Source of the DNA: an uncultured virus (IMG/VR IMGVR_UViG_3300026522_000616)
Taxonomy: Duplodnaviria > Heunggongvirae > Uroviricota > Caudoviricetes
Direction: 5' to 3' (one strand)
Length of the DNA stretch: 64,000 bases
IMG/VR virus record: IMGVR_UViG_3300026522_000616
Both the position numbers and the translations under genes were made by a program. Of this stretch, positions 5,140 through 54,700 are shown in pieces. How positions within the stretch are numbered: position 1 is the stretch's first letter; every line of letters starts with the position of its first letter. The notes under the pieces are model-generated. The model was not told the DNA's origin. It worked only from the letters and a program-made list of their open reading frames with translations, and did no database searches.

Positions 5140-5170
5140 AAAAAAGAGAAGTTTAAAACTTCTCTTTTTT
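5139..5170. terminator. Bidirectional terminator
   Basis: AAAAAAAGAGAAGTTT-AAAACTTCTCTTTTTT between convergent genes. Confidence 0.8.
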
Positions 5171-5174
5171 ATAA

Positions 5175-7756: not shown

Positions 7757-8347
7757 TTAATCAGCAGATGAAGAATCTTCTACTTTAAGAACATTAGCAA
7801 AATCTGTAATACCGATAGGAATCCATGTACCTGGTGTTCCACTCTTTGTACAAATCCAACCAATATTAGAGCCTGTTGTTGGAGCTAATTTAATAATCAT
7901 GTCACCTGTAGTATAAGCACCTGTTGTTGGTAAACTATCCATACGTAACATTTTTACAGTAGAATCGTTTTCTAATAATACTCCTGTATAATATTTTGCA
8001 GTTATATGGTCTGCTAAATCTTTATCAATATCAAATCCACCATTTGCATTATCAAATGTCCATGTTAATGTTTTAGCTGGACGTGCAACTGTAAAAGCAT
8101 CATCTTCTTCATAAATAATACCATTAATATTTAATTCTACTTTTTGTGCATTTGGTTCATTGGCTAATGTAAAATTAACTTCAGAAGCGGTTAATTTTGT
8201 TAAATCAATTGAGTCTTTAACAGAAAATACAGTATTTTGGAGGGCAGTAATTCTACTATTTACATCACCAAGTTTGCTAACTAAATCATTAACTTGTGAT
8301 AATAGAGCTTGACCACCATCAATTTGACGTAAATTAATCAATTTCAT
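7757..8347 (-). CDS. Putative virion structural protein
   Basis: Shares N-terminal LINLxQIxGGxAL and an INGIxYxE..LTWxF domain with 33835..35301; C-terminal PTTG..GD..GWICT.SGTPGTW motif typical of tail fibres. Confidence 0.6.
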   Translation of the reverse strand: MKLINLRQIDGGQALLSQVNDLVSKLGDVNSRITALQNTVFSVKDSIDLTKLTASEVNFTLANEPNAQKVELNINGIIYEEDDAFTVARPAKTLTWTFDNANGGFDIDKDLADHITAKYYTGVLLENDSTVKMLRMDSLPTTGAYTTGDMIIKLAPTTGSNIGWICTKSGTPGTWIPIGITDFANVLKVEDSSSAD

Positions 8348-8487
8348 ATTATAATCACCACTTTATAATTTGTTTATATAGGTACTAATTCCTAATCTCT
8401 ATTATAGATATAATGATTTTTTTATGAATTAATTGTATCTTGAAAATCTAATATAATAGAATATATAAATAAAAGGGGGAGAATTTT

Positions 8488-38642: not shown

Positions 38643-38779
38643 ATATGAAAATAGTCTGAAAATAGTCTAATTATATTTTACAGTATCAATAATGTTATGT
38701 TTATCAGTTTCAATACTATTATTTTTTGTATATTTTTAGATATTCATATAGTGTAAGACATTTGCGAGGTGATATTAAT

Positions 38780-39463
38780 ATGTCAGAAATTTCTACAATA
38801 ACAAGCGTTTCAAAACAATATGAATCTAGTGGAGACTGTTCAACGGTTTCTACAGGTTCAGGTGATTTAGGTGGTATTAGCTATGGTAGTTATCAATTAT
38901 CAAGTAATGCAGGTTCAGTAGATAGTTTTTTAGATTTTGCGCAAAATTATCCGGATGATGCATTGGCTAATTATGGTAGAACTTTAGCTCAATATGAAGT
39001 TAATTCACAAGAATTTATAAATACATGGGAAGAAATAGGACAAGCTGACCCTGATGGTTTTGGAGAACTTCAAGATGCTTATGCTATGGAGGTTTATTAC
39101 AATCCATCTTGTATAAAATTACAAGCAAATTATTATAATGTTAGTACAAAAAGTATTGCTATGAAAGCCTGTGTGTTTTCTCGTGCTATTCAATATGGTT
39201 CAGGGAATATGGTAGAATTATTCAATAATGCTTGTCAACGTTTAGGATATGATAATTTATCTTATGTAGACGATGCTAGATTTGATTATAATATGATTGC
39301 AAGTGTCTATGATTTCTTAATTGATGAATGTGACAATTCTTATCAAACATCTAATGGATTATATCATTCTCCTAATGATTGGTGTAATGGAAGTTGGGAT
39401 GTAATTTGTGGATTAAGAAATCGTTTCATAAATGAAAAGTCTCAATTATTGAATATGTTATGA
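38780..39463 (+). CDS. Lysozyme-like peptidoglycan hydrolase (VgrG3 C-terminal-like), candidate endolysin
   Basis: SKQYES.G...VSTG.GD.GG.SYGSYQL motif, later S.A.QYG and GL.NRF..E; ATG 38780 follows GAGGTG. Confidence 0.7.
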   Translation: MSEISTITSVSKQYESSGDCSTVSTGSGDLGGISYGSYQLSSNAGSVDSFLDFAQNYPDDALANYGRTLAQYEVNSQEFINTWEEIGQADPDGFGELQDAYAMEVYYNPSCIKLQANYYNVSTKSIAMKACVFSRAIQYGSGNMVELFNNACQRLGYDNLSYVDDARFDYNMIASVYDFLIDECDNSYQTSNGLYHSPNDWCNGSWDVICGLRNRFINEKSQLLNML

Positions 39464-39768
39464 TTTCATATTGTAATTTGAAGCTATTGGTAGTTTTGAA
39501 TTGCCAATAGCTTTTTTGTTTGATTTGAGACTAGAAATGTGGTATAATATGTACAAGGATAACAATATCTGATTGCACATATTGGTTGAATTAAATACAT
39601 TGATTGTATTTTTATATTTCTTCGTGATAGTCTTATTGTTTGAAGCACATATTAATAAGTCTGCTTTATTTGAGATAATAAAGCAAGGTATTAATAATAA
39701 TAAGATGATATATAAAAGTAATGTGTCCTTTCAATTGTATTTGATTTGTATACGAACGGAGGACGAGA

Positions 39769-40395
39769 ATGATTAGTACAGATAGTAGATTAACAAAGAA
39801 AATTGTCAACGGAATTAAAAATTACAAACTGCTTTATGTAGTGGGTGCATTTGGATTGTGTGGATTATCTTATTCAGGATATTCTTTACATAATGTAGCA
39901 GAAGCGCAGATTGCTAATGAACAAATGATTCAAATGCAAAATGAACAACTAGAACAAAGTAATCAGCAAATGGCAGACATTCGTACACAAGTTCAACAAA
40001 TTTCCCAAGATGTTGAAATTGAAAAAGCAAACGCAGAAAACCTAGAACTAGAAGAACAGAAAGCGAAAGAAGCAGAATTAAAAAAAGTTCAATCATCTAT
40101 TCCTTATAATTCTTCTAATAGTGGGAATGTATATACAGTAGAAGTTACGTATTATACAACCGCAGGTGATGAAGGTAGTGGAACAGGAATTACTGCAAGT
40201 GGCGCATATGCTACAGTAGGTCGTACAGTGGCTTGTAATTTTTTGCCGTTAGGTACACGGGTTAGAATCGACGGGGAAATATTCGTTGTAGAGGACAGAG
40301 GTGGCATGGGCTACGGGGTAGTTGATATTCTCGTTGGTAGTAAATCAGAAGCCTTTGCTCGTGGTAGACATTCTGCAACTATGACAGTACTTTGA
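39769..40395 (+). CDS. Membrane-anchored 3D-domain cell-wall protein
   Basis: N-terminal TM helix, coiled coil, VTYY..G.TASG..GRTVA...P.GT.V.I...VEDRGG...DI. Confidence 0.85.
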   Translation: MISTDSRLTKKIVNGIKNYKLLYVVGAFGLCGLSYSGYSLHNVAEAQIANEQMIQMQNEQLEQSNQQMADIRTQVQQISQDVEIEKANAENLELEEQKAKEAELKKVQSSIPYNSSNSGNVYTVEVTYYTTAGDEGSGTGITASGAYATVGRTVACNFLPLGTRVRIDGEIFVVEDRGGMGYGVVDILVGSKSEAFARGRHSATMTVL

Positions 40396-40432
40396 TTAAA
40401 ATGGAAGGTAATTATACCTTCCATTTTTTTAT

Positions 40433-40461
40433 TAGACAATATACTATTTTTTTGATATAAT
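40433..40461 (+). promoter_or_regulatory. sigmaA-like promoter for dnaE N-half
   Basis: TAGACA-N17-TATAAT with extended TG. Confidence 0.7.
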
Positions 40462-40501
40462 AGATTCAAAATAAGTTAAAGTATAAAGAGAGGTATATAT
40501 A

Positions 40502-42133
40502 ATGTCTGATGGGTTTGTAAATCTTCATGTACATAGCGAATATTCTTTATTGGATGGCATGATTAAAGTAGATGATTTAGTTAAAAAAACATTAGAATTT
40601 AATCAAATAGCCAGCGTGATTACAGACCATGGCAATGCCTACACAATTCCTGACCATTTTAAAGAAGCAAAGAAACAAGGACAACACGCGATTGCAGGTG
40701 TTGAATTATATACGGTAAAAGACCATACGCTAAAAGGTAAAGATGAAGGAGAAACAGAAAATGGTGCAAAACGAAACCATTTTCTTCTTTTAGCGAAAAA
40801 TAAAACAGGTTATCAAAAAATGTGTCGTATTCTTTCTAAAGGATATACGGAAGGATTTTATTATCGTCCTCGCGTAGATAATGGAATTATGGAAGAATAT
40901 TTAGACCCTGATGGAAAAGAATCAGATGTTATTGGTAGTTCAGCTTGCCTGGCCGGAATTCTGGCACAATCTATTTTAAAAGGCGATATAGAAACCGCTG
41001 AAAAATTTGCCAAATATTATTATAAATTATTTGGTGGAAATTTTTATTTGGAAATTCAACCAACACAAACATATGAACAGTATGTTGTCAATAAGGAATT
41101 ACTTGATATGTCAAAAAGATTAAATATTCCTCTAATTGCCACAACAGATGCACATTATCTGAAAAAAGAAGATAAGAAAACACATGATGTATTACTTTGT
41201 CTACAAAGTCATAGTTTGATTTCAGACCCAAATCGTTGGAGTTTCCCAGGTAATACATATTATATTATGAATAAAGAAGAACTTTGTTCATATTTTAAAC
41301 GCGAATATCAGTATAAATTGATTAAGAAAAAGAATACTAAGAAAAATGCCACATCTGAATTTACATATGAATATGTACATGATTATGATGGTATTAAATT
41401 TAGTGACCCTGAAAAAACAATCAATAATTTTGTTTCTGTAGAAAAAGAAGGACATTTTAGCTATGCAGATTTGAATCAAGAACAGATTGAAGAAGCAATT
41501 GCAGAAACAGAAAATATAGCAAATCAATGTACGTATGATATGGAATTTGGTAAACATTATTTACCAAAAATTCATATTCCTGTTGAGGACGTTAATTTTA
41601 GTAAATGGCGTTCAAAATTGAAACATCAAGGAAAACCGAATGAAGATTATTTAAAATATCTTTGTATTTTAGGATTAAAAGAACGTGGATTAACGGATAA
41701 AGTATATCGTAAAAGATTAAATTATGAATTGGGAATTATTAATGATATGGACTTTCCCGACTACTTTTTAATTTATTATGATATTGCTAAATTCTGTCAT
41801 GATAATAATATTCCATTCGGACCAGGTCGTGGTTGCTTTATTCCGAATGAATTAGTAAAAACAAATAATACAATTAAAAACATTCAAGATATTCAAATTG
41901 GAGATAAAGTATATTGCCATGATGAATTATTACATGATGTAATGGCAAAACATGAATATGACGTAGATGAAGATTTAATATCATTATCATGTAATAACGA
42001 AAAAATTGATGGTGTAACAAAAGACCATAAAATTTATGCTATTAAAAAAGATGATTTTGATAAAGGTATACGAGAACCAAAATGGTATTCTGCCAATGAA
42101 TTAGATATTGGTGATTATATTTGTAAATTATAA
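40502..42133 (+). CDS. dnaE: DNA polymerase III alpha, N-terminal half (PHP + start of palm) fused to split intein N-fragment
   Basis: FVNLHVHSEYSLLDG, ITDHG, GVELY, YYRPRVD, ATTDAHY, RLNYEL..I..MDFPDYFLI, GPGRG then intein. Confidence 0.95.
   Translation: MSDGFVNLHVHSEYSLLDGMIKVDDLVKKTLEFNQIASVITDHGNAYTIPDHFKEAKKQGQHAIAGVELYTVKDHTLKGKDEGETENGAKRNHFLLLAKNKTGYQKMCRILSKGYTEGFYYRPRVDNGIMEEYLDPDGKESDVIGSSACLAGILAQSILKGDIETAEKFAKYYYKLFGGNFYLEIQPTQTYEQYVVNKELLDMSKRLNIPLIATTDAHYLKKEDKKTHDVLLCLQSHSLISDPNRWSFPGNTYYIMNKEELCSYFKREYQYKLIKKKNTKKNATSEFTYEYVHDYDGIKFSDPEKTINNFVSVEKEGHFSYADLNQEQIEEAIAETENIANQCTYDMEFGKHYLPKIHIPVEDVNFSKWRSKLKHQGKPNEDYLKYLCILGLKERGLTDKVYRKRLNYELGIINDMDFPDYFLIYYDIAKFCHDNNIPFGPGRGCFIPNELVKTNNTIKNIQDIQIGDKVYCHDELLHDVMAKHEYDVDEDLISLSCNNEKIDGVTKDHKIYAIKKDDFDKGIREPKWYSANELDIGDYICKL
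41834..42130 (+). other. Split intein N-fragment (99 aa)
   Basis: Starts CFIPNELV.T....K.IQDIQIGD.V (block A); VTKDHKIY (block B TxxH); W..A.EL.IGD.I then stop. Confidence 0.92.
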
Positions 42134-42139
42134 AAAATT

Positions 42140-42172
42140 AAATGGATGTGCTTATTAAAGCACATCCATTTT
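42140..42172. terminator. Terminator after dnaE N-half
   Basis: AAATGGATGTGCTT-ATTA-AAGCACATCCATTT. Confidence 0.85.
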
Positions 42173-42651
42173 TAAATATATTCCATAATTGTATTATGAA
42201 TTTCTGTTAGTGCATAGTTCTGTTTTTCATATGGAAGATTAATAAATACAATATCACAGTTGTATTCTTTCGTGTTTGTATCTTGCCAATCAATGTTTTT
42301 GTTGTTAATTGTCGTATTTTCAATATATTCAAAAGATATATTGTGGTCGTTGTTTACTAATAGTACAAAAAATACCATTTTACCATTGTTCATATACTGT
42401 AGCCAATTTTTATTAGTATTTGAATTAAATGGAATATAGTGAAATTTTTCTTTCTGTTCTAATGCCATTAAACTAAATTTATTGTTTAATTGTGGTGCAT
42501 TTGGATACTCCATAAGATAAATATTTGTGTTATTATCATACATTTTGTTTAGAATGTCCGTAAATTCTTTATGAATAAGTTTAATTTCTTCTTTAGATAA
42601 TTGTGAATCGTTAATGAGATTTGTTTTTTTATGTTTTGTAAAAGAAAACAT
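42172..42651 (-). CDS. Hypothetical protein (paralogue of 43956..44459)
   Basis: Shared L(S/T)KEE.K..H.....L...Y.N....Y(L/I)M(E/D)Y...FV...N..H...Y.C....N.P.EK....IH. Confidence 0.7.
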   Translation of the reverse strand: MFSFTKHKKTNLINDSQLSKEEIKLIHKEFTDILNKMYDNNTNIYLMEYPNAPQLNNKFSLMALEQKEKFHYIPFNSNTNKNWLQYMNNGKMVFFVLLVNNDHNISFEYIENTTINNKNIDWQDTNTKEYNCDIVFINLPYEKQNYALTEIHNTIMEYI

Positions 42652-42713
42652 GATGAAAACCTCCGAATTATATTATATATATTATATATGAACTTTTTTT
42701 CTTCTTTGATTAT

Positions 42714-42742
42714 ATAGTAACATATTTTTTGAAAATTGTCAA
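42714..42742 (-). promoter_or_regulatory. sigmaA-like promoter for 42172..42651
   Basis: TTGACA-N17-TACTAT with extended TG on the minus strand. Confidence 0.7.
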
Positions 42743-42773
42743 CACTATTTTGAAAAAGGTTGTGAAAAATTTT

Positions 42774-43925
42774 ATGAAACGATTATCAAAATCATATCAA
42801 ACGGATGGATTTAATATTAATACAGATACAGAATTGAAAGCAATACAGGCAAAATATCCTGAATGTAGTAAAGATAAACTTGTTGATTTTGAAAAAAGTG
42901 GAATGAGCGGGTTTGGAGAAGTTGGATATAAATTTAATGAACATAATAATGATTTATCTGTTTATGTAATTGAATCTTTTGTATTTATGGATGTAGATAA
43001 AAGTCAAGGTCAACAAATAAATAAATTAGTATATATAGCTCAAAAATTAGATGTTAGCAATGAAAATATTGATAATGAACCAATGTATGTAAGTGATGCA
43101 TTTGTAAATGAAGGTAAAAATACATTTAATTTACAAGCAAGAAAACGTTATTTAGCGAAATTCCAAACCAATTTAAATATTAAACCATTAAAGAATGAAT
43201 GTAAAAATTATCAAGATTTAAAAACAGAATTAATTAAAGAACTTGGTAAAGAAAAGGTAGAACAAGGATTAGCTTATGAACAAGGAAGGACGTTAGAAGA
43301 TGCACATAAAGAATTTAATAAATTGTCATCATTTAAACGTTTAGTTAAATCTACTTTATTTGATGGTCAACCAATGAATGAAAAAGATTTAGAAGAAGAA
43401 TTAAAAATAAAAAAATTAAAGTCAATAAAAGTACAAATTAATACAGAACTACAATTACAATTTAGTGAACCTTTATTTGGAAATGTTTCTGATGAAGAAT
43501 ATAAAGATGTTAATAATGCTATTGACATAATTGGATTAAATAATATAGAAGATAAATGTTCAGAAATATCAAGTGAAATTTTGTTTGGGTCTAAATGTTC
43601 ATTTACTATTCAACGTAGTATGAATAATAGTGTTGAATTATTGGTTAGTATTTTTAGTGGAAAATATGTTGATTTTGATAAAAAATGGATAAAAGCTACT
43701 CCTACACAATTTAAATCATTAGTTCGCAAATGGTATAAACAATGTATGCCTTTAATAAAGGAAGCAAAAGATGATATTTATAATTCTATAGAAAATAAAA
43801 ATGATATAATTGAAAATGAAGATATTCCAATAAATGAAGTGGAAAATTCATTGATAATAAAGCATAGAAGAATTTCCAAATATGAATTTATAAAACAATA
43901 TGGCAATGGTGAACTAAATATATAA
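42774..43925 (+). CDS. Hypothetical protein (MKRL start)
   Basis: Long ORF; probable ATG 42774; internal KRLVKS. Confidence 0.65.
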   Translation: MKRLSKSYQTDGFNINTDTELKAIQAKYPECSKDKLVDFEKSGMSGFGEVGYKFNEHNNDLSVYVIESFVFMDVDKSQGQQINKLVYIAQKLDVSNENIDNEPMYVSDAFVNEGKNTFNLQARKRYLAKFQTNLNIKPLKNECKNYQDLKTELIKELGKEKVEQGLAYEQGRTLEDAHKEFNKLSSFKRLVKSTLFDGQPMNEKDLEEELKIKKLKSIKVQINTELQLQFSEPLFGNVSDEEYKDVNNAIDIIGLNNIEDKCSEISSEILFGSKCSFTIQRSMNNSVELLVSIFSGKYVDFDKKWIKATPTQFKSLVRKWYKQCMPLIKEAKDDIYNSIENKNDIIENEDIPINEVENSLIIKHRRISKYEFIKQYGNGELNI

Positions 43926-43955
43926 AAAAAATAGAGGATGCATCCTCTATTTTTT

Positions 43956-44459
43956 TTATATATTTTTGTCTACAAATTCAAAAAGTGCTTCGTGAATACT
44001 TCCCATAGTATCATGAAGTTTTTCAATTGGTGCATTTACTTGAAACAGATTGCATGAATAATATTTATTTTCATCACTATTATATAGGTTCGTATTCTTT
44101 ACATAAGAAATATTTAACTGATGATTGTAGTTAATTCCAAATACGAAAATTGTAATTTCACCATTTTTATACATTTTGAGAAAATGATAAAAAAATAATT
44201 GTCTATCTAATCTTTTATATTCTGTATTCGGTAATTCTTCTAATACATATAAATTTGCACCATCGGAAAATTTTGTAAAAGATGTATAATCCATAATGTA
44301 TTTATGGATTTTTTTATTTTTATAAATATTTTTTAATGCAAATGAAGTTTTATCATGTACATATTTTTTTTCTTCTTTTGTAAGGTGTGTTGGTGCGAAA
44401 ATGATTTTATTATCATTTGCATTATTGTTTGATTTTTTACTAAAAAATGGAATATGCAT
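43956..44459 (-). CDS. Hypothetical protein (paralogue of 42172..42651)
   Basis: Alignable by eye over most of its length. Confidence 0.7.
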   Translation of the reverse strand: MHIPFFSKKSNNNANDNKIIFAPTHLTKEEKKYVHDKTSFALKNIYKNKKIHKYIMDYTSFTKFSDGANLYVLEELPNTEYKRLDRQLFFYHFLKMYKNGEITIFVFGINYNHQLNISYVKNTNLYNSDENKYYSCNLFQVNAPIEKLHDTMGSIHEALFEFVDKNI

Positions 44460-44531
44460 GATGTAATTACCTCTTATTGTAACTTTATATAATATATAGA
44501 GATTTCTTTTTTTTAGTTTAATTATATTATG

Positions 44532-44737
44532 ATAACGTCAAAATTACATATAAATAAGAATAAATATGTATATTTTTGTTTAGAATTCTAAATTCAAGGT
44601 ATCGTTAATATACCTACCTTAATCTTTTTAGGATGCGGTATTTTGACGAATGTTATTTAACATTTGTGCATATATTTGTTTGAATTCTTCATGTTTTATG
44701 CCAATAGGAATGAATTTATTTGATTCAATTTCTTGAT
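44532..44737 (-). mobile_element. Non-autonomous IS607 derivative consisting only of the omega-RNA/right-end region
   Basis: Colinear, closely similar copy of 12450-12655; TGATAA at both junctions (44530-44535, 44734-44739). Confidence 0.9.
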
Positions 44738-44788
44738 AATATAATTTTGTCAACAATTTTAAAAAAATTTTAAGGGGCGGTAATAAAA

Positions 44789-44970
44789 ATGAAACGACTT
44801 GTAGCCATTGCTGTAAATACAGAAGAGCTTGGTATTTCAACAGAAGAAGAATTGAAATGGATTCAAAATGATAAAATGTATTTAACTAAAGATAATATAC
44901 ATAATTATGAAAAAAAATAATAATAAAGGTGGTTACGGTTTGTATATGAAAATGGTGGTAATCCATTAGA
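44789..44970 (+). pseudogene. Truncated/frameshifted paralogue of 42774..43925
   Basis: MKRLVAIAVNTEELGISTEEELKWIQ..TKD aligns with MKRLSKSYQTDGFNINTDTELKAIQ..SKD; stop at 44918-44920 right after an A8 run. Confidence 0.55.
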
Positions 44971-44997
44971 AGAAATTCCCGTATAAAGGAGTATATT

Positions 44998-45708
44998 ATG
45001 AATCGAATTTATTGTTTACATGATAATATATTAGACTTATTAAAGAAGAAAATAGATAATACAGATATACTTACATTTGATGATGGGCATTACTCTGTTT
45101 ATAAATATAGATATATATTAGATGATATAGATTGCAAAAAAATATTGTTTGTAACACCTAGTTATATATCTATGGATAGACGAGAAGAAGAACCAGATAT
45201 GTCTATATATTATCAATGGTATTATCGTGTTATGAATAAATCTCCTTGGTTAAATATTTATGAAATAGAAGATTTAATTAAAAATCATAATATAGAATTA
45301 GGGATGCATTCTTACTATCATGATTTTGTATATGTAAAAGGACAGAATGATGAAGATAGAATGTGGAGAATGTATAAAATATCTAAAGATATAAATAAAA
45401 TGAAAATTTTAAATCGTATGTACAGTATACATTCTAGTTTATCTGTTAAAGGTATAGATGTGTTAAATGGTTGTTTATATCATAGAAACGATATTCAATT
45501 TGAAGAATTTATTAAATCAGATACATTTATGTGTGTAGATTGGTTTAAAAAATATTTTGGAGTTCCTAAAAAATATGCTTATCCATTTTTTGAAGGTTCT
45601 CCTACTTTAGATTTTGAATTATTTAAATATGGCATTAAAAAAGAAAATATATATGGTAAACGAGAAAATATTAAAAATGCTATTGACAAAAACGATAAAA
45701 TAAGATAG
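44998..45708 (+). CDS. Polysaccharide deacetylase (NodB-like) family protein
   Basis: LTFDDG, ELGMHSYYH, YAYPF. Confidence 0.8.
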   Translation: MNRIYCLHDNILDLLKKKIDNTDILTFDDGHYSVYKYRYILDDIDCKKILFVTPSYISMDRREEEPDMSIYYQWYYRVMNKSPWLNIYEIEDLIKNHNIELGMHSYYHDFVYVKGQNDEDRMWRMYKISKDINKMKILNRMYSIHSSLSVKGIDVLNGCLYHRNDIQFEEFIKSDTFMCVDWFKKYFGVPKKYAYPFFEGSPTLDFELFKYGIKKENIYGKRENIKNAIDKNDKIR

Positions 45709-45711
45709 AAT
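45683..45711 (+). promoter_or_regulatory. sigmaA-like promoter
   Basis: TTGACA-N17-TAGAAT. Confidence 0.65.
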
Positions 45712-45735
45712 TATATAAAAAAGGAGGTGATTTTC

Positions 45736-46035
45736 ATGAGCTTGCTTTTTGGTGGTTCATCTTATACGGATTTAATTAAAGATAATAATCGTGATTTGTG
45801 GTCAACTACGCCAATTATTTTTCCAACGGTCACACAATTAAAATCAATGGACGAATGGATTAGTTGTGTGAATAAGATTATGTATTTGGTTTTTGATGCT
45901 TTTTATTCTTGCCAATCATCAGTTGAATGTAAAGTACCTGTTGAATATAAAAAAGATATTATTCAATATTTAAAAAATTCAGGATATGATTGTTACGAGA
46001 AAGATGAAAACATTCTCTTGATTAGTGGGTGGTAA
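45736..46035 (+). CDS. Hypothetical protein
   Basis: Strong RBS AGGAGGTG. Confidence 0.65.
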   Translation: MSLLFGGSSYTDLIKDNNRDLWSTTPIIFPTVTQLKSMDEWISCVNKIMYLVFDAFYSCQSSVECKVPVEYKKDIIQYLKNSGYDCYEKDENILLISGW

Positions 46036-46036
46036 T

Positions 46037-46258
46037 ATGGCTAAGAAACGTTTGGTAAAACGTACTGTTAATTCTCCATATCATGCGTTTTATGGATATG
46101 GTTATTATCCGTGGTATTGGGGAACAGGTTATGGATATGACGATGTAGATTATGATTTAGATAATTCTCCTTACGACAATTCATCTTTTGATGGTTATTC
46201 CACAGATGTATTTGACGGTGGATTTGATGGAGGTTTTGATGGTGGGTGTGATATATGA
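46037..46258 (+). CDS. Small Tyr/Gly/Asp-rich low-complexity protein
   Basis: KKRLVKR basic start, YGYGYYPWYWG, (FDGG)3. Confidence 0.65.
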   Translation: MAKKRLVKRTVNSPYHAFYGYGYYPWYWGTGYGYDDVDYDLDNSPYDNSSFDGYSTDVFDGGFDGGFDGGCDI

Positions 46259-47019
46259 ATATAGTAAAAGCTAAATTAATTCAATTGGCAGAAGAAGAAC
46301 AAAAGCAGGAAGAAAATAAAGAATATACATTTGACGAATTAAACAAACTTTGTCAAGATAAATATGGAGAAGATTTGCAACAAATAGATACTCCTGAACA
46401 AGAGCAGGAAATATTTGGTGAAGAAAAAGAAGGACACACAGGTTATCCATATTTTGTATGTGGAGACAAAGTTTATAATAATTTAGATGATGTAAAATCA
46501 GATGTAGTAGAAGAACAAAAAACTACACAGGAGTTTAATTCCGCAGGTACTTCCTTAAATCAAATTCCTGCACTACATAAAAAACTTGTAAATAAAAATA
46601 TGTTGAATGGAGTCAATTTTGATAATGGTGCAGGTAAATTTGATAAAGCTACAAATTTCCTAGCAGATAATGATATTCAAAATGTAAGATATGACCCATA
46701 TAATCTTCCTGAAGAAGTTAATAAACAGGCAGATAATTATGTAGGACAATGTGATACATCTACGTGTGCGAATGTACTAAATGTTATTAAAGAAGATTCT
46801 GCAAAAATTGATGTATTAAAACGTTCTTATGATATGTTAAAACCTGGTGGCACATTATATATTTCTGTTTATGAAGGAAATCGTAGTGGTATTGGAAAAG
46901 AAAGTAAACCTGGTTGTTGGCAAGAGAATAAGAAATTAAAAGATTATGTTCCAATTGTTGAAAAAGTATTTCCAAAAGTAACTATTTCTAATGGCATGAT
47001 TGAAGCTACAAAGGAGTAA
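46255..47019 (+). CDS. Class I SAM-dependent methyltransferase
   Basis: NFDNGAGK motif I, YDPYN, NVLNVI, LKPGGTLYISVY. Confidence 0.8.
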   Translation: MNIVKAKLIQLAEEEQKQEENKEYTFDELNKLCQDKYGEDLQQIDTPEQEQEIFGEEKEGHTGYPYFVCGDKVYNNLDDVKSDVVEEQKTTQEFNSAGTSLNQIPALHKKLVNKNMLNGVNFDNGAGKFDKATNFLADNDIQNVRYDPYNLPEEVNKQADNYVGQCDTSTCANVLNVIKEDSAKIDVLKRSYDMLKPGGTLYISVYEGNRSGIGKESKPGCWQENKKLKDYVPIVEKVFPKVTISNGMIEATKE

Positions 47020-47021
47020 AA

Positions 47022-47339
47022 ATGGTTATTGAACGAAAAGTATTAAATAAGATTGCAGGGATTATTTGTGCTATTTTTATAACAATTACTTTAATTTCTG
47101 TTGTTTTAATGTTATCTCCAAACGTATTAACAAAACATTACGGTGGGGAATATACAATTGATTTACCGCAAGGAAGAAAATTAGTTCCTTATACAGTTCA
47201 ATGGGAACAAAAAAGTTCAAATATTTGGTATTTAACTGAGCCAATGAACGAAACAGATGAACCTAAAGAATATCAATTTCATGAATCTTCTAATTTAGGT
47301 ATTCTTCAAGGAACAATTACTTTTAAAGAACATAAATAA
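47022..47339 (+). CDS. Membrane-anchored hypothetical protein
   Basis: N-terminal TM; K.YGG...I.LP.G.KL....W....IWYLT.PM. Confidence 0.65.
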   Translation: MVIERKVLNKIAGIICAIFITITLISVVLMLSPNVLTKHYGGEYTIDLPQGRKLVPYTVQWEQKSSNIWYLTEPMNETDEPKEYQFHESSNLGILQGTITFKEHK

Positions 47340-47399
47340 TATAATAAATAGACAAGGCAAAAACCTTGTCTATTTTACTATATCGGTAGGTGATATATA

Positions 47400-47597
47400 A
47401 TGAATTTGCAAGAAGCGTATGATTTTATAGTACAGTATTGTAAAAAGAATAATTGTGATAATTGCCCTTTTTATGAAACAAATAAAACTTATCCTGAAGA
47501 AGTTTGTTTGTTAGCCATAGGTGTAGCACCGTGTTTTTGGGATGATATAAAAAATGAAAAAAATAAAAAACAATATCTTAGAAATAGATATTATTGA
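47400..47597 (+). CDS. Small Cys-rich hypothetical protein
   Basis: C....C..CPF....C.L....PC.W. Confidence 0.6.
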   Translation: MNLQEAYDFIVQYCKKNNCDNCPFYETNKTYPEEVCLLAIGVAPCFWDDIKNEKNKKQYLRNRYY

Positions 47598-48447
47598 TGG
47601 TTGTAATGCGAAATGTGTTTGTTGCCCTCGTGGATTAGGATTATTAGGTAATTCCATGACTAAAATGGACTATGAACTATATAAAAAAGTTATAGATAAA
47701 GCCCATAATATAGGAATTAATGAAATTGTTTTGTTTAGTTGGAGTGAACCTTTTTTACATCCGCAATTATTTAATTTTTGTAAATACGCAAAACAATATC
47801 ATATGAAAGTAGATTTGTCAACAAATTTATCATTAAAAAATATAGATTTTGAAAATATATTGCCTTATGTAGATAGTTTGATTATTTCTGTTAGTGGTTT
47901 TTATCAATCAATATATGAAATTAATCATAAAAATTGTAATGTAGATTTAGTAAAAGAAAATATATTGAAAATTGGAAATGTGAATATTCCAACATATATT
48001 CAATTGAGATATTTTGTCTATGATTATAATCAAGAAGAAATTCAACTATGGAAAGATTTTTTGCCAAAAAATATTCATTTTTGGAAATGTGAAGGTAATG
48101 ATAATCCATTACAAAGTATAGAAGCGATGAAACAAAATCAATTGCCTGAAGAATATTTTGGAAAAATAGAGTATGGTAAAAACGAATATAGAGACAATAT
48201 TAGAATGGATTATTGTGATTTAACTAGAATGATTACGTTAGATTGGAAAGCAGATGAATATTTGTGTTGTGAAAAAATATATGATAAATCTATTAAAATA
48301 GGTAATTTCTTAAAAGATGATATATATGAAATGCAAAAGAAAAAATTAATGCATAAAGAATGTGATATATGTCATAGAAAAAAATCATATCTATCTTTTT
48401 TATCTAAAAGCGATTTTAATCGAATAAAAGAAAAAACCTTCTTGTAA
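47554..48447 (+). CDS. Radical SAM protein with C-terminal SPASM/twitch-like cysteines
   Basis: CNAKCVCCP (CxxxCxxC), WSEPFLHP, STN; C-terminal C...YLCC...IGN...C..C. Confidence 0.88.
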   Translation: MKKIKNNILEIDIIDGCNAKCVCCPRGLGLLGNSMTKMDYELYKKVIDKAHNIGINEIVLFSWSEPFLHPQLFNFCKYAKQYHMKVDLSTNLSLKNIDFENILPYVDSLIISVSGFYQSIYEINHKNCNVDLVKENILKIGNVNIPTYIQLRYFVYDYNQEEIQLWKDFLPKNIHFWKCEGNDNPLQSIEAMKQNQLPEEYFGKIEYGKNEYRDNIRMDYCDLTRMITLDWKADEYLCCEKIYDKSIKIGNFLKDDIYEMQKKKLMHKECDICHRKKSYLSFLSKSDFNRIKEKTFL

Positions 48448-48470
48448 TAGTTTTGAAAAAATGATATACT
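48442..48470 (+). promoter_or_regulatory. sigmaA-like promoter for dnaE C-half
   Basis: TTGTAA-N17-TATACT with extended TG; RBS GAAGGGAG downstream. Confidence 0.65.
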
Positions 48471-48489
48471 AACTCTAAGAAGGGAGTGA

Positions 48490-48690
48490 GTGCCTATGCA
48501 CTTTAAGCAGATAACAGATAAGTCAACTTATCATTATCAAGGAAAAGTGTATGATTTAACTGTTGATGGAGCACACTCATATAATGTCAATAATTTTATT
48601 GTACATAATAGTGGTGCAGGTTCATTAGTTAATCATGCGCTAGGTATTACACAGATTAATCCATTGGATTATGACCTTATCTTTGAGCGT
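48490..48690 (+). CDS. dnaE: dnaE C-half exon 1: split intein C-fragment (48490-48609) + SGAGSLV..ALGIT..NPL.Y.L.FER
   Basis: VYDLTVDGAHSY.VNNFIVHN|S (intein blocks F/G, Ser+1) followed by conserved DnaE sequence. Confidence 0.92.
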
Positions 48691-49042
48691 AAACAAATGT
48701 TTTGTCAGGTAACAAATTGCGCTCGTAAAATCTATTGAATTGCTGGAAAGTTCTAAAGCCTATATAACTACAACGTGATTCGTGAGAATGAGCGTGAATG
48801 TTACGAAAGTAGAAAAAATATATAGGATTACCCATGCTGAAATAATAACATACGGTGACGTAGTGCTAAAGGTGAATAAATGGATAATCAGCATCTAAGT
48901 ATCTTAGTGATAAGATAAAAGTTCAACGACTAAAGAAAGTATACTTATAAAATATAAGCAGAAATCTTATTAGCGGTAGACATGTTTACAACAAACATGG
49001 TGATATAGTCTAATTTTTGCATAAAAGTGCAAATTTTTAATG
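48691..49042 (+). ncRNA. Group I intron (ORF-less, 352 nt) in dnaE
   Basis: Exon ends GAGCGU and pairs with IGS GCGCUC (48719-48724, U-G wobble); P AATTGCTGGAAA, Q AATCAGCA, R GTTCAACGACTA, S GATATAGTC; terminal G; splicing gives FER|FLNPDR. Confidence 0.93.
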
Positions 49043-50125
49043 TTTTTGAACCCTGACCGGGGACATTTGCCCGATATTGACAGTGATTTTGGTCCTACTC
49101 GTGGTTCAGAAGTATTTGAACATCTGAATAAATTGTATGGAAAAGAAAATTGTTGTAATATCGTAACATTTTCTAATCTCCAAACAAAAGCAATTATCAA
49201 AGATGTTTGTAGAGCTTTTGAAGTACCACTTGCGGAAGTAAATGCAATTACGAAATTAGTTCCTAAAGATGCAAAAGAGTTTAAAGACTTGTTGGAAGTA
49301 GATGAAATAAAACAATTCTTTAATAAACATCAAGGAATCTATCAACATTGTGAAAAACTATGTGGCTCACCGAGACATCATTCACAACATCCTGCGGGGA
49401 TTTGTGTATTGCCATTTCCTGTAACAGATATTCTTCCTGTAGAAAATGCAGTACCAACAGTTAATAATTTTGTTGGGTTAATGTCTCAATATGGTAAAGA
49501 GAACGTTGAAGCAGTCGGAGCTGTCAAGTTAGATGTGTTACGTTTAATCAACATTGAATCCCTATATAATCAAGTGGATTTAGTAAAAAAAGAATATGGA
49601 ATAGATTTAAAACTTGCTGATATTCCATTGGATGATAAAAATGCATGGGATTTAATTGATTCATGTGATACAATGGGTATTTTCCAAATGGAAGGTGCTA
49701 TTGGCAAAGACATAATCAAACAAATTAATCCTAGAAATATTGAGGAACTTTCAGCAGTCAATGCATTTGTGCGACCAGGTACAAGTGGATTAGAGAATTA
49801 CTGTGAAGCCAAAAAAGACCCATCTAAAATTACAAAATATCATCCAAAATTAGATAAATGGCTTGCTCCTACATACGGGTCCATCGTGTATCAAGAGGAG
49901 ATTCTTGGTCTAATTTCAGAAATAATGGGGGTTTCTTTTGGTAGAGCAGATATTTATCGTAGAGCACTTGAAAAACCAAATAAAAAAGGTAACAAAGAAC
50001 TTTTTGAAGATTTCTTGAATAATGGTGTGCAACGTGGCATTGAAAATGGTATACCAAAAGAAGCAGGAGAAAGAATACAGAAAGCAATTATAGATAATGC
50101 AGGTTATCTCTTTAATAAAAGCCAT
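49043..50125 (+). CDS. dnaE: dnaE C-half exon 2 (catalytic palm/fingers)
   Basis: FLNPDRGHLPDIDSDF, HPAGI, KLDVL, GIFQME, RPG, YQEEI, YLFNKSH. Confidence 0.95.
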
Positions 50126-50443
50126 TAACAAAAATGTTGGGTGGCACGGTAGTGTGAATTGCCGTTAAAAATCTATGAAATTGCGGGGACACCTTAAAGC
50201 TATATTGACTACAACGGAATTTGTAAAAATAAACGTGATAGTTGCGAAAGCAGAAAAAATAATATGGATGATATATGGTTAAATCCTAAGTATTGTTGTA
50301 ATAGGCAATCCGCATCCAAATATCCATTTATATGGATAGAGGTTCAGAGAGTATAATATAGACATCTTTATTATAAAGATGATTGTGTACTCCAAACCAT
50401 AACACATAAATTTTGTGGTCTGTGAAAGCAGATGTGGTAAAAG
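50126..50443 (+). ncRNA. Group I intron (ORF-less, 318 nt) in dnaE
   Basis: Exon ends GCCAU and pairs with GUGGC (50141-50145); P AATTGCGGGGA, Q AATCCGCA, R GTTCAGAGAGTA pairing with TACTC; terminal G; splicing gives FNKSH|SIAYSYISYWTAYIKANFP. Confidence 0.93.
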
Positions 50444-51607
50444 TCAATTGCATATAGTTATATCTCATATTGGACTGCGTATATTAAAGCCAATTTCCCA
50501 TTGGTATTTTATATTTCATTATTTAATACTGAACCTGTTTCTAAATTGCAAGACTGTATTCAAGAAGCAAAAAAACATGGAATTAAAATTGAACCGCCTG
50601 ATATGTCAAAATCTAAATTTGAATCTACCATTGAAGATAAAGAAAACATGGTAATTCGTATGGGATTGAATTGTGTAAAAGGTATTGGTGATAAAGCCGT
50701 TGAAGAAATTACACCAAACCAACCTTATACAGATTTCCATGATTATTTTGAACGTGCAGGTAAAGGTGCAGGTAAAGGTGTAGTTGAAGCAGGAATTAAA
50801 ATTGGTGCTTTTGAATTTATGCCATTGATTGTTGATAAATCTTTAATTAAAGATAATCATTTAACAATTGAAGAAAATGATGAAAATACGGTTAAAGTAT
50901 ATATGAATCGTTCTCAACAAATGGTATGGTATCAATCGTATTTAGATAATAAGTCTAAAAAATCTGTTCCTAATTATGCAATACCAAAAGATATTTTGAG
51001 TGGAGAAATTCAAATGAAATTCGCAGATGATTTTGAGAATGAAAATGTAATTATTGAAAAAGATAATACAATTATTATTCCTGAAAATCATTTGGAAGAA
51101 TTTGAATTAAAATTAAATAATGTGGAACAATATAAAACTAGGAAGAAACCTAAAGGAAAATTCAAGGTTCAAAAAGATACTAGAAAGATTTTACCTGAAG
51201 AAAAAGCCTTTGAAAAATCATATGATGATATTTGTCATGTAAAAGAAAATAAAATTCAACAATACCTAGATGATATGGATAATTTTGAATTATCATTTAT
51301 TCCACATCCCTTTGAAAAAGCAAACCATTTAATTCCTTTATTGGAAAACGTGGAAGATGGTAAAAAAGTTAGAACGGCAGGAATTGTTGTAGATATTATT
51401 ACAAGACAGACAAAAAAAGGAAAGCCTTTTTATAATGTTGTTCTACAAACACCTAGAGAAAAACAAAGATTGACTGTATGGAGTAATATATTTATTCAAA
51501 ATAAAGAATTGCTTCAAAAAAATTCTTTGGTAAAAGTAATTGGTACAAAAGGATTTGGTGGATTAACTGCTGAAGCATTTGTTCCTTCAAAACAGAATAA
51601 ACATTAA
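50444..51607 (+). CDS. dnaE: dnaE C-half exon 3 (HhH and OB-fold region)
   Basis: SIAY..ISY.TAY.KAN.P, PPD.SKS, IRMGLNCVKGIG, C-terminal OB fold. Confidence 0.92.
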   Translation, partial: SIAYSYISYWTAYIKANFPLVFYISLFNTEPVSKLQDCIQEAKKHGIKIEPPDMSKSKFESTIEDKENMVIRMGLNCVKGIGDKAVEEITPNQPYTDFHDYFERAGKGAGKGVVEAGIKIGAFEFMPLIVDKSLIKDNHLTIEENDENTVKVYMNRSQQMVWYQSYLDNKSKKSVPNYAIPKDILSGEIQMKFADDFENENVIIEKDNTIIIPENHLEEFELKLNNVEQYKTRKKPKGKFKVQKDTRKILPEEKAFEKSYDDICHVKENKIQQYLDDMDNFELSFIPHPFEKANHLIPLLENVEDGKKVRTAGIVVDIITRQTKKGKPFYNVVLQTPREKQRLTVWSNIFIQNKELLQKNSLVKVIGTKGFGGLTAEAFVPSKQNKH

Positions 51608-51752
51608 AAATATAAAGACTAGATTACAATCTAGTCTTTTTTATTTATAAAAGATAATGAAATAAGAAACAAGGAATATATTATTTAAATTTTAGAAAAC
51701 AAATATGAAATATTTTTCATTTTATATACACTAAAATGAGGTGAATACATAT

Positions 51753-54700
51753 ATGAATAAGCCAATTAAAGGTGATGGATTCCGTAGAGGACAATACGCA
51801 CACGTTATGTTCCAAGCTAGTGCAAATGATGTTCCTGATATGCGAATCAAAGTTAATGAAGGTTCATTTTGGGTAAACAACAAACAATTAGTGGAATTTA
51901 GTGGCGGACAAAGCCCTGTTATTGAAGCTCCATTAAGCGGTGCAAAATGGGTTTTAGTCGCTATTAATAAATTAGGAAAGATTGTTCTTTATAATGGACA
52001 CGCCGTACCAAATAACCCTGATGCTCCATATATTGATAAAAACGTTTTGCCAATTGCTTTTGTTTATATTAAATCTTCAACAAAAGTAATTACAAACGAT
52101 ATGATTTATGATGCTCGTCCGCTTTATGCAGCAGGTGGTTATCCTGAACAACATAATTTACTTGATGGGCGTGATGCAGAAGATTGCCATCCAATTCAAG
52201 CTATTACAGGATTACAAGAAGCATTAGATAATCGTCTTACATTAGAAGATGCTGACCAACGTTTCTATCAGAAAGCAGATAGTGATGGTACAACAGAAGC
52301 TAATTTTGTTTTAAATAAAGATGATAATGGTACACCTGTTGAATATTGTGGTATTCGTGTCAATCGTGGTGCTCAGCCACAAGTAGGTTTACGTTATAAT
52401 GAAGATGTAGACCAATGGCAGTATACAAATGATGGTACAACATGGCATCCATTTGGTAACGACGTTGATTTATCTGACCTTGCTACACAATATTCCGCAG
52501 GTATTACACAACTTTCTGTTGACCCTGTAGACGCTAAACATCCAATTGCCGTTGGTGATAATGACCCACGTTTAGCAGAAATTAATAAGAAAGTAAGTAA
52601 AGATGAATTAAAGAATACTGTATATACAAAAACTGAAACGGATAAACTCTTAAAAGGAAAAGCTAATGTAACAGATGTATATAACAAAGAAGATGCAGAA
52701 AACATCTTTATGACGAAAGCTGATTTTTCAACATATGGTGGATATACAAAAGACCAATTAAACAGCTTCTTTAATGCAAAAGCAAATGCTTCTTCAGTAT
52801 ATACAAAATCAGAAGTAGTAGATTTGCTTTCAAAATATTATACTAAAGATGAAGTAGAAAAAGCACTTAATGACCATAAATGCAATTGTTGTGGTGGAGG
52901 TTCAGGTAGTGGTAGTTCTTCAGGTGGTTCAACAACTCCTGCTCCTAGTGTTGACCTTTCAAAATACTATACTTCTGACCAAGTAAATGACTTAATTGAT
53001 AAACTTGAAAAACAAGTATATAAATCAGATGTATTAGATACGAAATTTAATACAATTACAACAAATATTTCTACTTTACAAAGTTCTATCAATAATAAAG
53101 CAAATGCAACAGATGTATATAATAAGTCTGTCATTGATGCTAAATTTAGTGCTTTACCAAAGCCAACAACAGTTGATATGACTTCTTATTATACTAAGAG
53201 TGATGTAAATCTTTTATTAGCAGATAAAGCAGATATTAATCATGGACATACTGCTTCTCAAATTTCACAAGATTCTAATCATCGTTTTGTTACAGATGAT
53301 GAAATTACTGCATGGAATAATAAGGCAGATGCATTGGGTTATACTGCTGAAAATACTGCCAATAAGGGTGTAGCTAACGGCTATGCTTCATTAGGTGCAG
53401 ATGGTAAAGTCCCACAATCACAATTACCTCCCCTTACTGCTGGTGTTGGTAGCGGTGGCGTTGAATATTTAGGTTCATTCGCTGCTTTAAATGCTATTGC
53501 CAAACCAGATGTAAATAAGATTTATGTTGTATTGGACGCTTCTGATGGAGATAGTACAGTTCAAAGTGGTTGGGCAGAATATGTATATCATGATTCTTCA
53601 TGGTTAAAGATTGCAGAAAAAGAATCAATGGATGTTGTTGTTGATTGGACAGATGTTCAAAATAAACCAACTAATATTGTATATAAAGATGACACTATTA
53701 TGTCAAATCTTGCTCATACAGGAACAACAGGAGATGTATATACAAAAACAGAAGTTGATAATAAATTAGCAGGTAAATCTGATACAACACATACACACGA
53801 TGGCATTTATGTAAAACCTTCTGCTTTAGCTAATTATGTTAAAACAGATGATAGCCGTTTAGGACAAATTCATGCTGCAACTACATTAGGTACAAAAACT
53901 GTTGATGAAACAGGAATGAAGGATGGATACGTATTAACATATAGCCTTGCAGAAGATAAACTAGTATATAAGAAAACCACGTCTGCTAGTGCAACAACAG
54001 GTGGAAATTCAAACGATAATGTGTTGGGTTCAAAAGAAATCGAAGAACCAACAACAATTACTGATGGTGCTTCTATTGTATATGATAAAACGAAAGATAA
54101 ACTTGTTTATAAGAAACTTCATGAATCTAATCAATTAGGTAATGCTACTGTTGATGAAACAGATATTGGTAAAGATAAATATCTTGCCCATGATGGTAAA
54201 AATAAACTTGTTTATAAGAGTTTACCAACTAATTTATTAGATATTGATAATACAGATATTGCAGATGGTAAAGTACTTGCATATGATTCTGCTAATCAAA
54301 AATTAAAATATGTTGCACTTCCTTCTAATAGTGGAAGTAGTAGTTCAGGTACGTCAACAGGCTCTTCTGTAAAAACATATGACCTTAAATTCCAAGGTGA
54401 TACTAAAGTTGTTGGTAAATATCGTGCAGGTAAAGAAAATGCAGTCAAAGTAACAAAAGTTGATGTAAACAATTATACATTATTAATTGATAGAGATGCA
54501 GATTTGCGTATGTTACAATTTGTTACTGATACATTAACTAGTACAACATTACATTTCAAGTATGAATATACAGATGGAACAAAACCAGATGTTAATAATA
54601 TTCAAGAATATCCTGTTGCACTAGTATCTTATATAGAATTAACTTCTAATTTGTTGCAAAGAACAACAAGTTCTAGTTTCGATGATAGTGCTGATATGAC

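Follow-up and report, generated by a model that had tools for sequence, protein, structure and literature searches.

A gut phage dnaE gene in four pieces, with two group I introns spliced from RNA and a predicted trans-splicing split intein

The IMG/VR virus record IMGVR_UViG_3300026522_000616, a stretch of 64,000 nt that we call the window and to whose full length all coordinates refer, carries a gene for DnaE, the DNA polymerase III (Pol III) alpha protein, in four separate pieces. We consider it very likely that the gene encodes the replicative DnaE of a large cattle-gut phage of low GC and is interrupted by three selfish self-splicing elements, all of which must be removed for the enzyme to be made. 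Joining 40502-41833, 48610-48690, 49043-50125 and 50444-51604 gives 3657 nt that translate into 1219 aa (139.5 kDa) with no stop codon, in exact agreement with the coordinates and the in-frame product of about 1219 aa proposed earlier from the letters alone (the sequence-only reading). That reading assigned the first junction to a split intein and the other two to group I introns, an assignment borne out by Rfam matches and P1 pairings, empty sites in relatives, joints in RNA and invariant intein residues. The joined protein also proved colinear with Pol III alpha at every one of its three junctions. The parts of the gene are listed below; in motifs here and throughout, a slash marks the point of interruption.

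40502..41833, + strand: N-extein of DnaE, 444 aa, comprising the PHP domain and the start of the palm, up to GPGRG (Pfam PHP 7.6e-40, DNA_pol3_alpha 2-84)
41834..42133, + strand: IntN, the N-terminal half of the intein, 99 aa, CFIPNE...TKDH...YICKL and a TAA stop (Cys1, T506 and H509 invariant in an 18-sequence alignment)
48490..48609, + strand: IntC, the intein's C-terminal half, 40 aa if started at GTG 48490, ending ...FIVHN (Pfam Intein_splicing 120-155, E 2.8e-5, below cut-off)
48610..48690, + strand: exon 2, C-extein residues 1-27, SGAGS...LIFER (Pfam DNA_pol3_alpha 66-92)
48691..49042, + strand: group I intron 1, 352 nt, with no open reading frame (Rfam Intron_gpI 44.3 bits, E 1.9e-9, model positions 1-253)
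49043..50125, + strand: exon 3, 361 aa, FLNPDRGHLPDIDSDF...VKLD...FNKSH, palm catalytic residues and fingers (Pfam DNA_pol3_alpha 93-259, DNA_pol3_finger)
50126..50443, + strand: group I intron 2, 318 nt, with no open reading frame, related to intron 1 (Rfam Intron_gpI 23.8 bits, E 0.0026, model positions 1-253)
50444..51607, + strand: exon 4, 387 aa and TAA, SIAYSYISYW..., HhH domain and C-terminal region (Pfam HHH_6 7.4e-15)

Metatranscriptome contigs directly support both RNA splicing events. For the stretch 48480-50700, at least half of the sampled words were present in 20 public runs; these belong to 13 studies, carry the label bovine gut metagenome and include six recorded as RNA. We compared the contigs of the RNA runs X4, X7 and X8, each from a different study, and of the best-matching DNA run (X1) over 48300-51700. 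The joint 48690>49043, which skips 352 nt with ends AA..TG, was present in one contig of each of the three RNA runs, as was the joint 50125>50444, which skips 318 nt. A single X8 contig (record 27, 1862 nt) combines 48496-48690, 49043-50125 and 50444-51006 and so carries both joints, with no mismatches. Neither joint occurred in the one DNA run, whose contigs 48300-48726, 48697-49493 and 49464-51700 read through both introns. An intron-less DNA variant in the RNA samples is an unlikely source of the joints because 1841 exon nt are identical, and known intron-less relatives differ by at least 14% in protein. Contigs of this kind cannot show expression level or splicing efficiency, and RNA contig depth was left unused. 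Recoding or frameshifting was rejected as a cause of the breaks; the stops are TAA, and the intervening stretches of 318-352 nt are removed from the RNA. The X7 joint 48756>48917 and X1 joints from 48350, all with short sides (20-26 nt), were set aside as repeat or assembler artefacts.

At the DNA level the pieces lie on open reading frames (ORFs) that break at conserved motifs. ORF 40502-42133 (543 aa) ends ...IPFGPGRG/CFIPNE...GDYICKL and a stop. ORF 48490-48738 reads MPMHFKQ...NNFIVHN/SGAGSLVNHALGITQINPLDYDLIFER, followed by 15 unrelated codons and a stop, and ORF 49040-50128 starts (M)FLNPDRGHLPDIDSDF and terminates at ...GYLFNKSH. The reading frame from 50444, SIAYSYISYWTAYIKANFPLVF..., opens SIAYSYISYW and continues up to the stop TAA at 51605-51607. 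The N-terminus of the N-extein, MSDGFVNLHVHS, is also present in relatives.

Positions of the Pfam DNA_pol3_alpha profile run on across the junction of exons 2 and 3, from 92 to 93. Aligned with solved chains, piece 2 covers residues 363-390 of Escherichia coli Pol III alpha and piece 3 residues 391-760, that is, from the next residue onward; piece 3 aligns with residues 453-817 of the Thermus aquaticus protein (reference structures 2hnh and 2hpi). In E. coli numbering the intein lies at G363/S364, intron 1 at R390/F391 and intron 2 directly after H760. PHP, pol3_alpha, finger and HhH domains occur in that order, each above its Pfam cut-off. The catalytic aspartates are present, PDIDSDF and VKLD aligning with the PDID and K.D motifs of 2hnh and 2hpi; we take these residues to be D401, D403 and D555. 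The split site GPGRG/S lies in the GS motif. The junctions go beyond chance, because relatives are uninterrupted exactly there and RNA contigs show the same joints.

Both stretches removed from the RNA have the features of group I introns. With a 2.3-kb query in E-value mode, the Rfam Intron_gpI alignments span 48661-49033 for intron 1 and 50141-50385 for intron 2. The P1 of intron 1 pairs exon GAGCGU (48685-48690) with GCGCUC (48719-48724) at six of six positions, with U.G at the splice site, and that of intron 2 pairs exon GCCAU (50121-50125) with GUGGC (50141-50145) at five of five. Both 5' exons thus end in a U that pairs with G in P1, and both introns end in G (49042 and 50443). The conserved core is represented in the cmscan alignment of intron 1 by P3, P4-P6, P8 and P9, and in the model alignment of intron 2 by P3-P8. 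By eye, P7 is GAGUA with UACUC in intron 2 and GACUA with UAGUC in intron 1, and P9 was likewise recognized by eye. Intron 1 sits ten codons ahead of the PDID aspartates and intron 2 directly after FNKSH. Homology links the two introns (nhmmer E 5.6e-10), and the relative L005 has a third intron related to them (E 7.4e-9). At least 104 stretches of viral contigs in IMG/VR contain a 38-letter P4-P5 motif of the introns; the window introns are therefore members of a very common phage intron family. A search of the window with four introns (nhmmer) returned no further copy, and an exact 47-nt stretch of intron 2 had no match in IMG/VR. Both introns would be expected to excise themselves without protein help.

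One X7 contig joins the homologous P5 regions of the two introns (48820>50267), skipping 1446 nt, with five extra letters and a short side (20-26 nt). It is probably an assembler chimera formed through shared words; recombination between intron 1 and intron 2 is conceivable as well.

Comparison with relatives showed that the introns come and go. Three close relatives from IMG/VR have whole-protein identities of 84-86% (L003), 83% (L004) and 67-82% (L005), and L005 is uninterrupted at both intron sites, reading ...LIFERFLNPDRGHLPDIDSDF... and ...FNKSHSIAYSIISYW... there. The intron 1 site is empty, with FERFLNPDR contiguous, in L005, P0040, P0042 and P0043; the intron 2 site is empty, with FNKSHSIAYS contiguous, in L003, L004, L005, P0042 and P0043. 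P0042 (820 aa) and P0043 (816 aa) are whole IntC plus C-extein halves with neither intron, and the window predicts a spliced C-half of 813-815 aa. At the FER/F site L003 carries an intron (6807-7165) that scores 54.9 bits with Rfam, above the cut-off; beyond its first ~64 nt, which form the P1 region, it has diverged from window intron 1. Such a pattern points to the replacement of an intron, or to recombination, at a single site.

Further sites in the gene are occupied in these relatives. In L005 a group I intron of 2059 nt (7975-10033; Rfam 60.6 bits at 7950-8300) interrupts ...VG/VKLD, four codons before the third catalytic aspartate. Between its ribozyme core and 3' splice site this intron carries an opposite-strand, homing-endonuclease-like ORF of 537 aa (8345-9958; phrog_9084, phrog_559). 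An extra contiguous mini-intein lies in the PHP domain of L005 (about 150-610) at SSA/C...SAHN/CLAG, as also in P0005-P0010, where the window has a contiguous SSACLAG. A second split intein interrupts FNK/SH in L015, L021, L039, L041 and L045, with IntN following GFNK and IntC ending ...LTSN/SHA, and DnaE of those relatives would therefore be made from three proteins. This intein lies two codons from the window intron 2 site, so the same conserved motif has been struck by different parasites. Presence and absence among relatives indicate that the introns are sporadic and mobile rather than a conserved feature.

Three side observations belong here. Several database N-halves of 700-930 aa contain intein and Hom_end domains at the PHP-domain site. 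The C-half fragment P0041 (164 aa) diverges past ...AEVNSITKLIP, which suggests a fourth interruption site, in exon 3. A weak Intron_gpI match was also seen in the nearest phage record, at G001:C1:78286-78482 (L008; 28.3 bits, E 1.2e-6).

The first junction differs from the other two in that the intein halves lie on separate ORFs, with the IntN stop at 42131 and the IntC start at 48490 or 48496. The ATG at 48496, 9 nt past AGGGAG, is the likelier start and would shorten IntC to 38 aa. A search with the IntN region gave 91 candidates, of which 39 protein clusters had E<=0.001; nearly all of these are N-halves of 470-550 aa with PHP and pol3_alpha domains, and a few of ~600-930 aa have extra intein-family domains. 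In an alignment of the window and 17 relatives, reaching down to 29% identity, G440-C445 (GPGRGC), T506 and H509 are invariant, giving Cys1 and the TxxH motif, and all 18 N-halves terminate within a few residues of the IntN end. H39, N40 and S41 are invariant in the IntC alignment, giving His-Asn and the +1 nucleophile (VHN/S). A predicted complex of IntN (438-543, 18-row alignment) with IntC (1-50, six rows) scored 0.77, compared with 0.00 for the best of three controls; the runs share at least 91% of contacts, and partner pLDDT (predicted local distance difference test) is at least 73. Among solved complexes 116 of 157 attain the mark applied to such models, as do 2 of 215 mismatched pairs, a calibration that is rough here, where custom alignments were used.

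The split is a property of a wide group of phage loci. A pattern scan of IMG/VR gave 49 loci, nine with no usable N-extein end and 40 classifiable. The N-half ORF stops 89-139 aa past Cys1 in 38 of these 40, and the intein is contiguous in the other two (L025 and L026). Of the 38 split loci, 31 have a same-strand IntC further downstream, and the HN/S junction is present in every locus with an IntC match (33 of 33). The seven split loci with no IntC comprise two at a contig edge and five with 10 kb of downstream DNA lacking IntC, including contigs of 416 kb and 504 kb. Proteins of relatives were found on contigs of 404-504 kb. CheckV completeness of related contigs (8% for 39 kb, 33% for 61 kb, 50% for 89 kb) is inconsistent, and we therefore draw no genome size from it.

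The distance between the halves and the content of the gap vary among these loci. From the N-half stop to IntC it is 80-2289 nt in distant relatives, 4.9 kb in L009 (the contig of L003), 5.5 kb in L010 (the contig of L005), 6.4 kb in the window and 9.0 kb in L012. Seventeen gap ORFs from 16 loci were compared with Pfam; 14 have nuclease-family matches at E<=0.001 (six of the 14 at Pfam's own cut-off) and three have no match. Twelve of the matches are of PD-(D/E)xK type (Tn7_TnsA-like_N, Phage_endo_I, DUF7487) and two are GIY-YIG. Distant relatives thus have the nuclease gene between the halves that marks a fractured gene (14 of 17 gap ORFs). The window does not, as its 11 spacer ORFs gave no nuclease-family match in Pfam or PHROGs. 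The split intein would be an old element, fixed in the clade, that started as a fractured gene whose halves flanked a homing-endonuclease gene; in the lineage of the window the nuclease gene would have been lost, unrelated genes filling the gap.

These findings suggest a path from gene to enzyme. The gene, split at GPGRG/S into two same-strand genes 6.4 kb apart, would be expressed from separate transcription units. The N-half would be translated as N-extein plus IntN (543 aa, 63 kDa), while the two ORF-less group I introns would excise themselves from the C-half transcript to leave an mRNA for IntC plus C-extein. IntN and IntC would then assemble into a HINT fold and carry out class-1 trans-splicing (Cys1, TxxH, His-Asn, Ser+1), yielding the full-length 1219-aa polymerase. 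Both introns may be recent, sporadic invaders from the common phage family, and the ligated product would presumably be active.

Several points weigh against this account. Unspliced contigs also occur in all three RNA runs, for example 48661-49055 and 50097-50473 in X4. The RNA evidence consists of assembled contigs rather than raw reads, DNA is possible in RNA libraries, the DNA control X1 comes from a different sample than the RNA runs, and the evidence is confined to the C-half region. Both introns score under the Rfam RF00028 gathering score of 50, and a gathering-mode scan of the whole window returned no match. E-value mode on the whole window also missed both introns, its filters being stricter on long input, and is uninformative about further introns. 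As to the intein, Pfam Hint reached 16.0 bits against a cut-off of 29.7 and Intein_splicing 24.4 against 35.8. IntN gave chance-level matches only to PDB sequences, none significant to a solved intein, and the passing complex model may reflect likeness, not binding, because split-intein complexes have already been solved. Ligation is a step that we only infer, on good grounds: Cys1, T..H, HN/S, clade-wide conservation and the predicted complex all point to protein trans-splicing of the DnaE halves.

The surroundings of the two half-genes bear on how they are expressed. The relevant features are as follows.

42140..42171, no strand assigned: palindromic hairpin of 14 bp resembling a terminator, flanked by the N-half and the convergent ORF 42172-42651
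42172..48447, no strand assigned: spacer, 6.3 kb, 11 non-dnaE ORFs of which three are antisense (ORF list, Pfam, PHROGs)
43918-43963: terminator-like hairpin inside the spacer
44998-45708: deacetylase-like protein in the spacer
46255-47019: methyltransferase-like protein in the spacer
47554-48447: radical SAM protein in the spacer
51614..51639, no strand assigned: terminator-like hairpin just past the stop of the dnaE C-half

Terminator-like sites number 10 in 40000-52000, compared with 2.6 +/- 1.8 in shuffles, and promoter-like matches are not above chance (77 versus 89 +/- 10). A weak hint comes from the RNA contigs, which end at 51593-51608 where the DNA contig continues beyond. Given the terminator-like hairpins and the antisense spacer ORFs, the halves are most likely transcribed separately.

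Two of the antisense spacer ORFs are paralogous (42172-42651, - strand, 159 aa; 43956-44459, - strand, 167 aa) and match no Pfam or PHROG family; small ORFs akin to this pair occur in the L005 spacer at 4010-4453 and 4836-5243. In 38726-40395, directly upstream of the dnaE N-half, one encoded protein has a C-terminal domain like that of VgrG3 (PF21277, 6.4e-34) and another resembles peptidases (phrog_6631, phrog_20590); they may act in cell-wall degradation. More widely, the dnaE locus is flanked by tail-fibre-like and lysis-like genes, and the window is phage-like DNA of low guanine-plus-cytosine (GC) content, about 24-35% per kb, with no tRNA genes. Megablast of the dnaE locus against GenBank phages gave no match, and the nearest phage record (G001) has no dnaE.

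As to function, the sequence-only reading had offered a regulatory gate, protection of conserved sites against homing, and simple accumulation of parasites. Comparison favours the last of these, an accumulation of selfish elements, because close relatives may have or lack either intron and carry elements at other sites; a dedicated gate is neither needed nor supported. It is unlikely, in our estimate, that the GPGRG/S split has been co-opted as a two-key replication control to which the ORF-less introns add an RNA-level delay. With halves 5 to >10 kb apart in different units, the replicase would form only when both units are on. As a corollary, there may perhaps be selection for keeping such sites occupied, as a form of immunity to the homing endonucleases of phages that co-infect, since conserved motifs are struck repeatedly (FNKSH by an intron and a split intein, VG/VKLD by the L005 intron and by a break in Bacillus phage G, described below).

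Slightly less probable again is a gate in which the three splicing events, or the separately transcribed halves, time or limit replicase assembly. Such a gate would fit the fixation of the split in a wide clade (38 of 40 loci), the distance of 4.9-9 kb or more than 10 kb between halves in the window lineage, and the separate transcription units implied by antisense genes and terminator-like hairpins between the halves. Both introns are, however, dispensable among near relatives, and in the model of Dassa et al. 2009 (PMC2677866) a split intein should become fixed even if it brings no benefit, intein loss being irreversible once the halves are apart. For the fixed split intein specifically, a gating role is conceivable.

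The two halves might instead function as a polymerase of two non-covalently associated chains, merely tethered by intein halves that no longer splice. A split minimal Pol III alpha of other jumbo phages is described by Iyer et al. 2021 (PMC7824862), yet we regard this as quite improbable here, as the invariance of Cys1, T..H, HN and Ser+1 down to 29% identity would be unexpected under selection for binding only. That the gene is a decaying pseudogene, with the phage dependent on another polymerase, is very improbable. Automated gene calling does give four fragments, and a second polymerase is possible in the rest of the phage genome, beyond the window; against this stand 1219 aa free of stops and frameshifts, intact catalytic motifs, RNA precisely spliced in three studies and the same architecture conserved in 49 loci. 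An assembly artefact or chimera, to which the metagenomic origin of the window and the X7 contig joining the two introns (itself probably a chimera) might point, is scarcely credible when 20 runs from 13 studies contain at least half of the sampled words of the stretch, X1 DNA contigs cross every exon-intron border, and the same split recurs in the independent contigs L003 and L005, in L003 together with intron 1.

We therefore return to a replicase gene burdened by selfish elements, for which close parallels are known. Dassa et al. 2009 (PMC2677866) described three fractured dnaE loci in marine metagenomes, along with a proposed model in which the halves become uncoupled through loss of the nuclease gene. 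As in those loci, the window has a replication gene as two ORFs, each with a split-intein half, at one locus and on one strand, and distant relatives of the window have the exact layout with a nuclease gene in the gap. By eye, the IntC of the second split intein at FNK/SH in relatives also resembles that of DnaE-3 in the same article. The window differs in having no recognisable homing endonuclease, its 6.4 kb with 11 unrelated ORFs corresponding to step IV, 'uncoupling', and in the two group I introns of its C-half. The cyanobacterial split DnaE (Ssp/Npu; Wu et al. 1998, cited in PMC2677866) likewise makes Pol III alpha from two genes by trans-splicing, but its insertion point is another one (metagenomic sites differ from the cyanobacterial, PMC2677866), as is its intein lineage, and it belongs to a cellular host, with distant loci and no introns.

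An intein similar by eye is the IMPDH-1 split intein of the GOS metagenome (PMC2677866, supplementary file 1). Its IntC shares the frame ...DLTV...HSYNV...VHN/S and is identical to the window IntC at 23 of 41 positions in a by-eye count, and its IntN shares CF.P..LV..., IGDKV and T..H, with Cys1 and Ser+1 in both (same file). The host proteins differ, IMP dehydrogenase in the one case and DnaE in the other. The IMPDH-1 split intein reportedly splices fast, a finding associated with Carvajal-Vallejos et al. 2012. Dozens of natural variants of a related Cys1/Ser+1 intein are now at hand and may serve as orthogonal ligation tools.

Among cultured phages, Bacillus phage G (NC_023719, 498 kb) has the same intein at the same site in gp329, GPGRG/CFVPGQ...LAVHN/SAAGS. 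This intein is contiguous and therefore splices in cis, unlike that of the window. The dnaE of phage G consists of at least three ORFs, gp329, gp331 and gp339 (L058:7687-11659, L059:289-2109). Its first break follows FLNPTRGKLP and adjoins the homing endonuclease gp330; the second separates gp331 (...VEALGL) from gp339 (VKFDILGL) by a 5-kb gap with seven unrelated genes, gp332-338, including a NUDIX hydrolase. These breaks are at other sites than in the window, and FNKSH is uninterrupted. Self-splicing introns in the phage G polymerase gene are mentioned by Iyer et al. 2021 (PMC7824862); our Rfam scan of the first dnaE gap gave no group I match.

Huge and crAss-like gut phages rich in introns and inteins have also been described. 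The Jug phages (PMC12880540), as presented in the main text of that paper, are code-11 gut phages of low GC (27-30%) and 360-402 kb, with a mean of 18.5 group I introns per genome and with inteins, and their DNA polymerase genes are split by intervening endonuclease sequences, splicing having been validated by metatranscriptomes. That main text differs from the present case in containing none of the terms DnaE, 'polymerase III', 'split intein' and 'trans-splicing'.

The presence of several self-splicing elements within a single gene has precedents in other phages. Each element seen in the window, together with its close analogues (fractured dnaE, cyanobacterial split DnaE, phage G, intron- and intein-rich gut phages), is already known, and no new principle is involved. 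Three group I introns interrupt Twort orf142, an intron and an intein share SPbeta bnrdE, and the DNA polymerase gene of SPO1 has a group I intron. The likeness lies in group I introns, ORF-less or bearing a homing endonuclease gene, at conserved sites of genes for replication or nucleotide metabolism; in those phages the intein is contiguous, whereas the split intein of the window would require trans-splicing besides RNA cis-splicing. A phage dnaE needing both group I splicing and trans-splicing was not described in the literature searched, most subscription journals lying outside it, and the combination may be undescribed.

Placed beside these systems, the window presents a single essential enzyme that would require RNA cis-splicing twice and protein trans-splicing once. 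Gene callers would report such a replicase as fragments or a pseudogene, skewing functional and completeness estimates for huge gut phages. Moreover, one intein allele family spans a contiguous form (phage G), a fractured form with a nuclease gene (most loci) and an uncoupled form (the window clade), a series within a single intein allele that makes the gene-breaking model of Dassa et al. testable.

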